From the sequence record PP079210: DNA of 40,520 nt; one strand, given 5' to 3'. The stretch comes from Escherichia phage phiYIO1-1. Shown here in pieces: positions 36,534-39,940 of the stretch; positions within the stretch are counted from its first letter, which is position 1, and every line of letters starts with the position of its first letter. Position numbers and translations under genes: made by a program. A model generated the notes under the pieces. The model saw only the letters and a list, made by a program, of their open reading frames with translations, ran no database searches and was not told the origin of the DNA.

Positions 36534-36809
36534 ATGAGCAAGATAATGGAACGCAGGGCGGCCTATTACAAGCAGGTCTACAAGGTTGAGTTGCAGAGCC
36601 TAATTGAGATTCTCAAAGAGCAGGGAGGATGTGAGATATGTGGAAAGAGTATCTCATTCGAAGGCTCAAAGGTAACGGCTCGCGTAGACCACTGCCACTC
36701 TACTGGGGCTATACGTGGTATTATATGCAATAGGTGCAATCAGGCACTTGGGATGTTCGGAGATAACGTAGAGGGCATCTACAAGCTCTTGGCGTACCTA
36801 GGCAAATAG
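36534..36809 (+). CDS. Endonuclease VII-family (His-Me finger) protein inserted between gene 18 and gene 18.5
   Basis: 91 aa; CEICGK...RVDHCHSTGAIRGIICNRCNQALGMF fits the recombination endonuclease VII pattern (Cys pair, then DHxH..G..RG.LC..CN..LG). No counterpart at this position in T7 as recalled. Confidence 0.8.
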   Translation: MSKIMERRAAYYKQVYKVELQSLIEILKEQGGCEICGKSISFEGSKVTARVDHCHSTGAIRGIICNRCNQALGMFGDNVEGIYKLLAYLGK

Positions 36810-36819
36810 GAGGGCAACT

Positions 36820-37263
36820 ATGCTCGAATTTTTAAAGAGAGCGGCTCCGTGGTTACTTGCAGCAGTGATGTTTGCTGGTGGCTACCACACCGCTAACAAT
36901 AAGTGGGAGGCTAAGGTCAATGCGGAATACACCTCGAATCTTAAGGCATCGGAAGATACAAGGCTTGCTGTCCAAGCTGAAGTCAACAAAGTGTCCAAAC
37001 GGTTTCAGGACGAAATGTCCTCGCTGGAAGGCAGCACTGATAGGATTATTGCTGACCTTCAGTCTGACAATAAGCGGCTGCGCATCCGAGTCAAACCTAC
37101 GAGTGGAACCACGCAAAATGACGGTCGATGCTTCATTGATGGCTACGCCGAACTTGACGAACGAGATGCTAAACGTCTTATCGCCATCGGAGTGAAAGGA
37201 GACAAGTGGATTAAGGCCCTTCAAGACACTGTGAGAGCCTTGCAGCAAGATAAGGAGCAATGA
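36820..37263 (+). CDS. Gene 18.5 i-spanin (Rz-like)
   Basis: 147 aa; MLEFLKRAAPWLLAAVMFAGGYH (N-terminal TM), LEGSTDRIIADLQSDNKRLRIRVK, ELDERDAKRLIAIGVKGDKWIKALQDTVRALQ match T7 gp18.5. Confidence 0.9.
   Translation: MLEFLKRAAPWLLAAVMFAGGYHTANNKWEAKVNAEYTSNLKASEDTRLAVQAEVNKVSKRFQDEMSSLEGSTDRIIADLQSDNKRLRIRVKPTSGTTQNDGRCFIDGYAELDERDAKRLIAIGVKGDKWIKALQDTVRALQQDKEQ
36920..37195 (+). CDS. Gene 18.7 o-spanin (Rz1-like lipoprotein) embedded in the +1 frame of gene 18.5
   Basis: The alternative-frame ORF contains RWKAALIGLLLTFSLTISGCASE (lipobox-like LTISGC) and ...NLTNEMLNVLSP, matching T7 gp18.7 (RWKGALIGLFLICVATISGCASE...NLTTEMLNVFSQ). Start codon uncertain (36872 or 36920). Confidence 0.75.
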   Translation: MRNTPRILRHRKIQGLLSKLKSTKCPNGFRTKCPRWKAALIGLLLTFSLTISGCASESNLRVEPRKMTVDASLMATPNLTNEMLNVLSPSE

Positions 37264-37646
37264 TGCTGACAGACTTTGCGTATTCAGACGGTAAGTTGTT
37301 CAGGAAGGGACATGAAGTTGGCTCAATGGACAACCACGGTTATCTGAGGACTACGGTCAACTACCGTAAGTATCTCGTACACCGTCTAATCTACAAGCTG
37401 CACAACCCTGAGTTCGACCTTGAATCAGACCTTGTGATTGACCACATCAACCGCAACCGGACAGACAACAGGATTGAGAACCTTCGGGCTGTGACCAAGG
37501 CTGAAAACAACAGGAACAGGGACCTGCCGAAAGGCGTGTCTTATTGTAAACAGACCGGGAAGTGGAAGGCTATACAACCTCGCTGGCTCGGTCGATTTGA
37601 TACTGAACAGGAGGCCATTGATGCAGTTAACGCCGCAAGAGCGTAA
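37260..37646 (+). CDS. HNH homing endonuclease with AP2-like DNA-binding domain (upstream of terminase large subunit)
   Basis: 128 aa; HNH core [29 protein letters not shown]; C-terminal [21 protein letters not shown] is AP2-like; the 3' end overlaps the gene 19 start. Confidence 0.85.
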
Positions 37647-39384
37647 TGAGGCCGTGACAAAAAGGATGAAAGAGGACTTCGTGTTCTTCATCTTCGTTCT
37701 CTGGAAAGCTCTTAGCCTTCCGGTTCCAACCCGCTGCCAGATAGATATGTGTAAGAAGCTGGCTGCTGGGGATAATCGCCGCTTCATCCTTCAGGCTTTC
37801 CGTGGTATTGGTAAGTCGTTTCTGACCTGTGGTTTCGTGGTCTGGAAACTATGGAATAACCCAGACTTGAAGTTCATGATTGTGTCGGCCTCAAAGGAAC
37901 GAGCCGATGCGAACTCCATCTTCATCAAGCGAATCATCGACCTCATGCCTCAGCTTCGGGAACTCAAACCTAAGCAGGGGCAGCGAGATGCGGTTATCAG
38001 CTTCGACGTTGGACCAGCCAAGCCAGACCACTCACCTTCGGTTAAGTCCGTTGGTATCACTGGTCAGTTGACTGGTAGTCGTGCTGACCTCCTGATTGCC
38101 GATGACGTGGAGGTTCCAAACAACTCAGCGACTCAGGCTGCACGAGACCGTCTGTCAGAGCTTGTAAAAGAGTTCGACGCTATCCTGAAGCCGGGAGGTA
38201 CAATCATCTATCTGGGTACTCCTCAGAACGAGATGACCTTGTATCGTGAGCTGGAAGGCCGTGGATACACCACTACCATCTGGCCCGCTCGCTACCCACG
38301 CGATAAGAAGGACTGGCAGTCTTACGGCGACCGTCTGGCACCGATGCTTCAGGCAGAGCTTGAAGAGGACCCTGAGTCCTTCTACTGGCGTCCTACCGAT
38401 GAAGTACGGTTCGATGATACGGACCTGAAGGAACGTGAGCTGTCCTATGGTAAAGCTGGCTTCGCTCTACAGTTCATGCTTAACCCTAACCTGAGTGACG
38501 CCGAGAAGTACCCTCTGAAGCTCCGTGACCTTATCGTAGCCGACTTGGACCCAGCGTCTAGCCCAATGGTATACCAATGGCTTCCTAACCCTCAGAACAA
38601 GCGTGAGGACGTTCCTAACGTTGGACTCATGGGTGACTCATACCACACGTATCAGACTGTAGGTTCTGCCTTCAGTTCGTACACCCAGAAGATTCTGGTC
38701 ATTGACCCTAGTGGTCGTGGTAAGGATGAAACTGGCTATGCGGTACTGTACCAGCTCAACGGCTACATCTTCGCTATGGAAGTTGGTGGCATGCGTGGTG
38801 GTTATGAAGACTCTACGCTGGAAGCCTTGGCTAAGATTGGTCGTAAGTGGAAGGTCAACGAATACGTCATTGAGGGTAACTTCGGTGATGGTATGTACCT
38901 TGAGCTATTCAAGCCTGTAGCTTCCCGTATTCATCCTGCTGCTGTAACTGAAGTGAAGAGTAAGGGTCAGAAGGAACTCCGCATCTGTGACGTTCTGGAG
39001 CCTATCATGGGTTCTCACCGACTTATCGTTAACGCTGCTGCTATCGTCCAAGACTACCAGTCAGCCTCTGATAAGGATGGTGTTCGTAACCCTATCTACT
39101 CTCTCTTCTACCAGATGACCCGTATCTCTCGTGAACGTGGAGCCTTGGCACACGATGACCGACTTGATGCGCTGGCTATCGGTGTACAGTTCTTCGTTGA
39201 GTCTATGGCGAAGGATGCCAACAAAGGCGAACGTGAAGTCACTGAGGAGTGGCTGGAAGAACAGATGGAGAACCCACGGAAAGGCTTCGAGTCCATCCAC
39301 ACTGAGTTCTGGGACAATGGGGTCCGGGTAACTCACAATACGGACGACGAGCTAGGACTTGGTTCATACGTTACGTTCCACTAA
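37621..39384 (+). CDS. Gene 19 terminase large subunit
   Basis: [32 protein letters not shown] (Walker A-like), [112 protein letters not shown] match T7 gp19. Start set at the ATG preceded by AGGAGG; the track's upstream start at 37597 is less likely. Confidence 0.96.
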
Positions 39385-39397
39385 TAGGAGGAGAAAT

Positions 39398-39940
39398 ATG
39401 AGTAAACAGAAGGCCATCGACAGGGTGGCCCTCTTTAACCACTACGCATATGTTGACGGAAACTTGGTGTGCAAGAAGCCTTTCGGTAGCTCGAAGAAGA
39501 TTCCGGGTGAACCAATGGGCTTCTCTGTGCATCCATCCGGGTATGCTATAGTGAAGGTGTTGGGAAGCAGATATAGACGCTCAAGAATCATATATAGTCT
39601 AGCTGTAGGTCGAATACCTAATGGAATGTTGGTAGACCATATTAATGGTGATAGACTTGACGATAGGCCTGAGAACTATAGGCTTGTGACTGAGCTGGAG
39701 AACCGCTGGAACTCAGAAGGCGGGGAGACTAACGGTCTGCCCAAAGGAATCAGCTTCTTCAAGCCCACGGGCAAGTATCGTGCTCAGCTCCGGGTTAAAG
39801 GTAAATGCTTCACGAAGACCTCGGACTCCATAGAGGAACTAGAGGCTTGGCTGGACGCCTTACGAACAGAGAAGCACAAGGAGTACGCAGTAAACCTACG
39901 GTCCCCTAAGCGAGATAGGTCTCATAGAAACCACAAGTAA
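39398..39940 (+). CDS. HNH homing endonuclease with AP2-like domain (downstream of terminase large subunit)
   Basis: HNH core MLVDHINGDRLDDRPENYRLVTELEN; AP2-like GISFFKPTGKYRAQLRVKGKCF; same architecture as the ORF at 37260. Start set at the ATG preceded by TAGGAGGAG (the track starts at 39359). Confidence 0.85.
   Translation: MSKQKAIDRVALFNHYAYVDGNLVCKKPFGSSKKIPGEPMGFSVHPSGYAIVKVLGSRYRRSRIIYSLAVGRIPNGMLVDHINGDRLDDRPENYRLVTELENRWNSEGGETNGLPKGISFFKPTGKYRAQLRVKGKCFTKTSDSIEELEAWLDALRTEKHKEYAVNLRSPKRDRSHRNHK

Follow-up and report, generated by a model that had tools for sequence, protein, structure and literature searches.

Three predicted nuclease genes stand among the lysis and packaging genes of Escherichia phage phiYIO1-1 (AC No. 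PP079210), and the question is whether they serve DNA packaging or only lodge beside the terminase genes. The window, by which the whole stretch of 40,520 bp is meant here, is the complete genome of a K1F-like virus (genus Kayfunavirus, T7 family) with every gene on the plus strand. It is 90–98% identical to K1F across most of the genome in blastn and encodes a K1F-type tail spike of 1064 amino acids (aa). A gene for a small endonuclease VII-like protein (EndoVII) and two genes for HNH proteins, designated HNH1 and HNH2, fall within the 17.5-18-18.5-19-19.5 block at the right end. The gene order there is holin, gp18, EndoVII-like protein, Rz/Rz1 spanins, HNH1, gp19, HNH2, phage promoter, and gp19.5. 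All three open reading frames (ORFs) are intact, lie on the plus strand, and have strong Shine-Dalgarno (SD) sequences. A preliminary description of this block had proposed that the genes are selfish homing endonucleases, perhaps targeting terminase alleles, or that they have a packaging-associated role. They are probably independent free-standing homing endonuclease genes (HEGs), each of which invaded one of three intergenic landing sites, named here site 1 (18/18.5), site 2 (18.5/19), and site 3 (19/19.5). This reading is preferred because the genes form discrete insertions with sharp junctions, are rare, assort independently, share their sites with unrelated HEGs, occur also as decayed or deleted copies, and belong to fitting protein families.

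Insertions and their distribution in related phages

All three positions are without a gene in T7, and the report of three nuclease genes in the block was borne out by the intact ORFs and by this comparison. The expression "absent from T7" is right for the positions but not for the family, as T7 gp3.8 is an HNH relative encoded elsewhere. Compared with K1F, each gene is located in a separate insertion that replaces a shorter resident segment (Table 1).

The EndoVII cassette was found in three of 158 matching phage records. Six of 216 records had HNH1, with a diverged copy also in pO91. HNH2 was present in 12 of 203 records, and two PE3-1 records matched it at partial (77%) coverage. No phage record carried all three genes together, and the highest coverage of the whole block was 87%. 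If occupancy is written as site 1/site 2/site 3, with E for EndoVII, H1 for HNH1, H2 for HNH2, and x for a different HEG, then K1F and HC13 are -/-/-, CHRF_20120 and IMEP24 are E/-/-, and BDX03P1 and CtuP_B1 are -/H1/-. Other combinations are represented by pO91 (-/H1/H2), Esher7 (-/-/H2), and BUCT788 (x/H1/-), and metagenome contigs with an identical EndoVII protein had the states E/-/H2, E/-/-, and E/H1/?. Further states observed were -/3.8A/H2, -/3.8A/3.8B, -/3.8A/-, and -/-/3.8B, where 3.8A and 3.8B are HEG types known from phage CR44b. EndoVII, HNH1, and HNH2 assort independently. The pattern named in advance as contrary to a selfish origin, with the genes at identical positions in all relatives and no sequence discontinuity, was clearly not seen.

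The same sites are used by other elements. Site 1 of BUCT788 is occupied by a different HEG, site 2 of CR44b, SR04, and UKE3-2 by a 3.8A-type HEG, and site 3 of CR44b and KE05 by a 3.8B-type HEG. Morganella phage Lilpapawes, a member of another genus, is occupied at sites 1 and 2, with a 54-aa HNH fragment at site 1. Two small ORFs without similarity to the HNH cassettes were found at site 2 of one metagenome contig (L022; SRR27730895_19273, 1013-1252), so this site also takes non-nuclease cargo.

Decayed and deleted copies were found as well. The EndoVII copy of IMEP24 (L006) has the change C33Y and the metagenomic variant P0125 has C54Y, both at zinc-ligand or motif cysteines, which suggests that these copies are inactive and decaying. 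In KM02 (L015, 2905-2990), a CR44b-type 3.8A gene is internally deleted, with about 24 nucleotides (nt) of its 5′ end and about 31 nt of its 3′ end left, and the 3′ remnant holds the SD and ATG of the terminase gene. This deletion is comparable in size to a 397-bp one segregating in Hafnia phage Ca. KM02 was isolated and is apparently viable, which is relevant to the statement that Hafnia phage Ca is non-infectious when it has the similar deletion. Within the population of this Kayfunavirus, the HEG of about 397 bp at site 2 is polymorphic (PMC8861465), and among T7-like Citrobacter phages HEGs were described as the main differences (PMC4925675). The insertions, their sporadic and independent distribution, the sharing of sites by unrelated HEGs, and the decayed or deleted copies are direct observations, and so is the mosaic flank of gene 19 described below.

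Site 1: a predicted minimal His-Me finger nuclease

The endonuclease VII-family gene reported between gene 18 and the spanins was confirmed by Pfam, where the protein matched Endonuclease_7 (PF02945) with E = 4e-17 and 62 bits against a cut-off of 23.6 bits. The best match among PHROG endonuclease VII families had E = 1.8e-22. The protein belongs to the His-Me finger nuclease family, with motifs CxxC...DHCH...CxxCN, and residues C33, C36, D52, H53, H55, C65, C68, and N69 are invariant in the 11 homologues aligned. These family matches, the name "endonuclease VII" in related records, and the alignment of the catalytic D/H/N residues and four zinc cysteines with T4 endonuclease VII would suit a second Holliday-junction resolvase, an analogue of T4 gp49 and not a homing enzyme. 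Such a function is nevertheless very unlikely. Only residues 7-68 of the 157-aa T4 enzyme are aligned (E = 0.008), and the 91-aa protein stops soon after the catalytic motif, so that the C-terminal half with the helical, dimer-completing domain is missing. The closest relative in PDB is the catalytic domain of Hpy99I, a sequence-specific restriction enzyme (E = 2e-6). The gene was found in about 2% of relatives and is absent from about 98%, which is not the distribution of a conserved lineage function, and a canonical T7 endonuclease I is already encoded in the same genome (Pfam E = 7e-82). Short EndoVII-domain genes are also located in or beside the DNA polymerase genes of other phages, e.g., Yersinia phage Berlin and EC6, and homologues in other T7-like phages stand there, as HEGs do. 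We infer that the site 1 product is a minimal His-Me finger nuclease of homing type, not a junction resolvase. Its AlphaFold model, computed from the 11-sequence alignment, had a mean pLDDT of 51.6 and was unusable. Single-sequence searches returned 10 homologues of EndoVII and four of HNH2, and a profile search was used for HNH2 instead.

Insertion 1 holds the EndoVII-like gene together with its own SD. In the alignment, a 38-nt segment of the empty site is replaced, and the right junction is exactly at the gene 18.5 SD GGAGGGC. A hairpin between genes 18 and 18.5 (36477-36523, plus strand; RNA fold −19.5 kcal/mol, z = −3.5; see also L001, 778-830), at a position that we take to be that of the T7 RNase III site, is kept upstream of the cassette. 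A second small hairpin of the empty alleles is replaced by it. The upper stem of the first hairpin is 5 nt shorter in all EndoVII-carrying alleles than in empty-site alleles, and possible signs of co-conversion at site 1 are limited to such small linked changes.

Site 2: HNH1 and the start of the terminase gene

HNH1 matched HNH_3 in Pfam (E = 6e-18), phrog_99 (E = 2e-39), and I-HmuI (E = 0.014). Its AP2 match (E = 0.004), in a short AP2-like C-terminus, is under the Pfam cut-off, and an HNH-AP2 architecture is probable for HNH1, less firmly than for HNH2. The Lilpapawes homologue at the same site is 69% identical and is annotated as a putative homing endonuclease.

In empty alleles, the stop codon of gene 18.5 overlaps the TTG start of gene 19. 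In the window, the stop codon of the resident gene 18.5 overlaps the start of HNH1 instead (ATGA), and the HNH1 ATG occupies the position of that TTG and takes over the SD of gene 19. The 3′ end of HNH1 supplies the replacement, which consists of a new gene 19 SD (AGGAGG), an ATG at 37621, and recoded first 15 codons. These codons are TTG-initiated in empty alleles (SKDLVARQALMTAR) and differ in the cassette-specific version of the window. The new SD and the first 26 nt of gene 19 fall within the HNH1 ORF. The gene 19 start at 37621 was assigned from the annotations of BUCT788 and pO91 and from the length of T7 gp19. The 18.5/19 junction of about 60 nt, which is conserved throughout the empty alleles and replaced wherever site 2 is occupied, is the likeliest target at this site, and the HNH1 recognition sequence most probably lies in this junction of empty alleles.

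The insertion is followed by a hyper-divergent tract in the 5′ part of gene 19 (Table 1). Compared with K1F, the tract has 27 synonymous and six non-synonymous codon changes, or about 24% divergence over 186 nt, and there are five nt differences in the following 62 codons. It has the top divergence among 451 sliding windows of the late region (median 2%, 99th percentile 19.5%, maximum 28%), and relatives carry at least four haplotypes of it. The haplotype of 3.8A-carrying phages, including CR44b, is common to the window and BUCT788, both of which carry HNH1, and it seems that one HEG has taken the place of the other without a change of background. Strict linkage between tract haplotype and HEG was considered and was rejected once HC13, KE05, and KM02 were added. 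The pattern fits repeated break repair with partial co-conversion, and general recombination is also possible. At the site upstream of gene 19, targeting of terminase alleles, as proposed in the preliminary description, is plausible, because the cassette replaces the 5′ end of the gene and is followed by this divergent, mostly synonymous tract. To speak of "intron-less gene 19 alleles" as substrates is inapt, as the genes are free-standing and not intron-encoded.

A further explanation of this arrangement is offered tentatively, as one that may well not hold. The site-2 cassettes, each type with its own SD, start codon, and recoded 15 codons, might have captured the terminase start as a retention ("addiction") device. 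The adjacent gene 19 tract of about 190 nt would then be a recoded target or immunity region in which rival HEGs of the HNH1 and 3.8A types replace each other. Loss of the HEG 3′ end would in this case cripple packaging, because the start signals of gene 19 sit there. Three facts are consistent with such a capture: KM02 is without nearly all of the HEG and has kept exactly the terminase-start remnant, HNH1 stands here within a gene 19 background otherwise linked to 3.8A, and the HEG-deleted variant of Hafnia phage Ca forms small plaques (PMC8861465). The proposed capture of the terminase start by site-2 cassettes is the sole mildly novel point of this analysis, and it may have a role in retention.

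The overlap of HNH1 with the start of gene 19 could also be taken as a sign of function in packaging, where the terminase would be assisted in cutting or debranching concatemers by HNH1, HNH2, both of them, or the EndoVII-like protein. HK97 gp74, which works with terminase, and T4 endonuclease VII, which clears branches before packaging, would be the models. The genes adjoin those for the terminase in the late operon and run in the same direction, and a catalytic motif is common to the EndoVII-like protein and T4 endonuclease VII. The loss of the site-2 HEG in Hafnia phage Ca was correlated with small plaques, and the idea was raised by the authors of that study (PMC8861465). A packaging role is, however, extremely unlikely and this part of the preliminary description found no support, because T7, K1F, and most relatives package without these genes and the terminase carries a nuclease domain itself. 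Like T7 and K1F, more than 90% of related records are without all three genes, and these phages are viable. The gp19 matched PF22530 (T7 RNase H-like), with a weak match to Terminase_6N, and it is a T7-type terminase with an RNase H-like nuclease of its own, not a member of the Terminase_1 family. The HNH domains are of the PF13392 type (I-HmuI-like, with AP2) and not PF01844, which was matched by none of the three proteins; their HNH-family Pfam matches were PF13392 for HNH1 and HNH2 and PF02945 for the 91-aa protein. Unrelated HEGs substitute at the same sites, the likeness of the EndoVII-like protein to T4 endonuclease VII is confined to the segment given above, T7 endonuclease I is already available for debranching, and the isolated phage KM02 has the site-2 HEG almost entirely deleted.

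Site 3: HNH2 and the promoter region

HNH2, the third ORF, matched HNH_3 in Pfam (E = 1.5e-14). Its start is most likely the ATG at 39398 (180 aa) and not the TTG at 39359, because AGGAGG is located upstream of the ATG. The predicted fold matched I-HmuI and AP2 domains, including the three-stranded sheet and helix of AP2. The profile search returned 4554 homologues. Of the 120 listed, more than half have PF13392 together with PF00847, so that the label "HNH-AP2" is right for HNH2. The description of both genes flanking gene 19 as HNH-AP2 holds in full for this gene, and for HNH1 the AP2 part stays below the cut-off. The catalytic residues D-H...N...N are invariant among 50 HNH homologues.

Insertion 3 holds HNH2 and a diverged copy of the phage promoter region. 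On the left, it starts with the last base of the gene 19 stop codon (TAA vs. TAG). The promoter (39957-39974) lies within the replaced segment, is aligned with the resident promoter of empty-site genomes, and has a position equivalent to T7 phiOR. The promoter sequence TAACTATCACTATAGGGA has nine occurrences in the genome at up to three mismatches, against 0.02 expected. The promoter region is replaced on the right flank of site 3, and there is no divergent tract on the left. Site 3 loci were extracted by BLAST anchors, the flanks being divergent.

Two observations were made at the right side of this site. A 27-bp segment (40054-40080) is inverted compared with most relatives, and Esher7 has the same inversion; the segment is the loop between inverted arms GGAGGG/CCCTCC just upstream of gene 19.5. 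The right junction of the pO91 HNH2 cassette (L002, 3985-4190) differs in that a (CA)n run is followed by about 85 bp of retained empty-site sequence, which the window, Esher7, and SR04 have lost by deletion.

HNH1 and HNH2 are 34% identical (E = 1e-16). HNH2 is 35.5% identical to T7 gp3.8 (E = 1e-16), CR44b 3.8A is 36% identical to HNH1, and CR44b 3.8B is 29% identical to HNH2. A recent duplication within the genome is ruled out, as the two proteins are no closer to each other than to T7 gp3.8 or the CR44b genes; they are members of one large family and not recent duplicates. The term "paralogs" used for them earlier is acceptable at the family level, with the same architecture, and not in the sense of recent duplication.

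Proposed homing and the alternative of general recombination

Homing of the three genes would proceed in four steps. The genes, which stand in the late operon, would be expressed there and translated from their own strong ribosome-binding sites. In a mixed infection, each enzyme would then make a nick or cut at a specific sequence of a HEG-less relative, close to where its own gene is inserted, by analogy to I-HmuI-type HNH enzymes and to the free-standing phage HEGs SegF, SegG, and MobE of T4. Repair by recombination with the HEG-carrying template would copy the HEG and some flanking DNA (co-conversion). The carrier genome would be safe, because the insertion is proposed to have replaced the target sequence. 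That the proteins are active nucleases, where they cut, and that homing takes place at all are predictions from the sequences.

Could the genes have been shuffled by general recombination with no homing at all, as accessory cargo that serves as weapons against hosts or competing phages or has no function? T7-like genomes are mosaic throughout, with other divergent tracts and indels away from nuclease genes, site 2 can hold non-nuclease cargo, as in contig L022, and there is no strict linkage between the presence of a HEG and the haplotype of the gene 19 tract. Ordinary mosaicism is still an unlikely explanation, as most variable insertions in the block and near the DNA polymerase gene encode homing-family His-Me/HNH nucleases, the L022 cargo and ORF 15680-16135 being exceptions. 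Catalytic and zinc-binding residues are conserved across homologues. The most divergent tract of the late region abuts a HEG site, and local divergence also flanks two further places, namely the HNH gene at 12424 and the site of the K1F intron at 14877.

Several points weigh against homing. The cleavage activity and target sites of all three proteins are putative, and with the low-confidence model of the EndoVII-like protein its fold and oligomeric state stay predicted. No co-conversion signature was seen in the alignment at the 3′ end of gene 19 beside HNH2. HC13 and KE05 have the HEG-associated tract haplotype with site 2 empty, and HNH1 was found with three different haplotypes of the tract; with no strict linkage to a HEG, general mosaic recombination could explain the tract by itself. 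Regions 5600-6350 (DNA ligase gene) and 28750-28900 (gp15/gp16 junction), within genes that are conserved elsewhere along their length, are 20–40% divergent from K1F with no nuclease gene nearby. They represent general mosaicism and temper the co-conversion argument. The HEG-less variant of Hafnia phage Ca is associated with small plaques (PMC8861465), and the site-2 cassette could matter for fitness. The earlier proposal of selfish homing endonucleases is nonetheless well supported by the clean insertions, rarity, independent assortment, and shared sites.

Coordinates and other features of the genome

Table 1. Features of the lysis and packaging block of phage phiYIO1-1 and its differences from K1F.
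Feature	Position	Strand	Match, evidence, or comparison
Holin	36023-36217	+	
gp18 small terminase	36214-36477	+	
Insertion 1 vs. K1F, 284 bp replacing 39 bp, between genes 18 and 18.5	36525-36808	+	blastn
EndoVII-like gene, 91 aa	36534-36809	+	Pfam Endonuclease_7
Gene 18.5 (Rz-like i-spanin), with 18.7 frame embedded	36820-37263	+	PHROG Rz-like spanin, E = 2e-60
Insertion 2 vs. K1F, 408 bp replacing 53 bp	37258-37665	+	blastn, junction comparison
HNH1, 128 aa	37260-37646	+	Pfam HNH_3
Gene 19 large terminase, 587 aa from ATG 37621 (most likely start)	37621-39384	+	Pfam Terminase-T7_RNaseH-like, E = 5e-38
Hyper-divergent gene 19 5′ tract	37666-37851	+	44 nt differences from K1F in 62 codons
Insertion 3 vs. 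K1F, 669 bp replacing 224 bp	39384-40052	+	blastn, alignment
HNH2, 180 aa	39398-39940	+	Pfam HNH_3; fold match to AP2 domains
Phage RNA-polymerase promoter	39957-39974	+	TAACTATCACTATAGGGA-like site
gp19.5	40125-40283	+	

A scan of 35800-40520 for sigma-70 promoters and intrinsic terminators gave nothing beyond shuffled expectation. No terminal repeat was found in the window, and the record holds a single copy.

A fourth free-standing HNH_3 gene was identified at 12424-12858. Its product has 144 aa and is 44% identical to T7 gp7.7. The gene is an insertion compared with K1F (433 bp replacing 9 bp), located directly upstream of the DNA polymerase gene and overlapping the polymerase start. The intron with an HNH gene in the K1F DNA polymerase gene (K1F 14937-15534, 598 bp) is missing at window position 14876/14877, where local divergence is raised to about 19% on both sides. 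An insertion of 449 bp compared with K1F at 15684-16132, between genes 5.7 and 6, encodes a 151-aa protein that matched phrog_4382 and had no match in Pfam.

Comparison with known systems and significance

The closest known arrangement is that of CR44b (HG818823), where 3.8A and 3.8B, HNH_3-family genes annotated as "predicted homing endonuclease", occupy the same two sites bracketing gene 19, and the upstream gene 3.8A overlaps the gene 19 start. CR44b differs in having other genes at both sites and in missing the EndoVII-like gene at 18/18.5. I-HmuI of Bacillus phage SPO1 (PDB 1U3E) is a nicking homing endonuclease of the HNH_3 type with about 20% sequence identity. It is encoded by a group I intron and has a helix-turn-helix C-terminal DNA-binding region, whereas the genes described here are free-standing and their products have an AP2-like domain. 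T7 itself has the HNH genes gp3.8, gp7.7, and gp2.8, of which gp3.8 is of the HNH family of HNH2, but they are at other genome positions and none is in the 18-19.5 block. In T4, "intronless homing" by SegF, SegG, and MobE with co-conversion of flanking markers was reportedly described by Belle et al. in 2002 and Liu et al. in 2003. Like the genes in the window, these are free-standing nuclease genes that occur sporadically among relatives and are inserted between essential, conserved genes; flanking sequence is locally replaced along with them, as may be the case here. The Seg enzymes are GIY-YIG and not HNH, and homing and cleavage sites, which are predicted here, were shown by experiment in T4.

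The HEG of Hafnia phage Ca is at the spanin/gene 19 site of a Kayfunavirus too and overlaps both neighbours (PMC8861465), but it belongs with 3.8A of CR44b, to which it is 97% identical, and not with HNH1. An effect on the expression of terminase or lysin was proposed by its authors, and homing was not demonstrated there (PMC8861465). HK97 gp74 (Kala et al. 2014, as cited in PMC8861465) is likewise a small HNH-motif protein encoded beside terminase genes. It is a PF01844 protein and a conserved Terminase_1 partner in cos phages, whereas PF13392 proteins, a T7-type terminase, and dispensable genes are found here.

The block is a new combination of known kinds of genes, and the bracketing of gene 19 was already annotated in CR44b. 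In annotation, the three genes should be treated as optional homing endonucleases and not as packaging components, and no new mechanism of packaging is indicated. For phage engineering as well as biology, insertions are tolerated at the sites 18/18.5, 18.5/19, and 19/19.5, which act as natural hot spots of recombination in the K1F-like phages, a group used in therapy research. In mixed infections or cocktails, the genes could bias which of the terminase and lysis alleles beside them are inherited. The capture of the terminase start, if it acts in retention as it may, would show how a selfish gene becomes entrenched beside an essential one, an elaboration of known biology.

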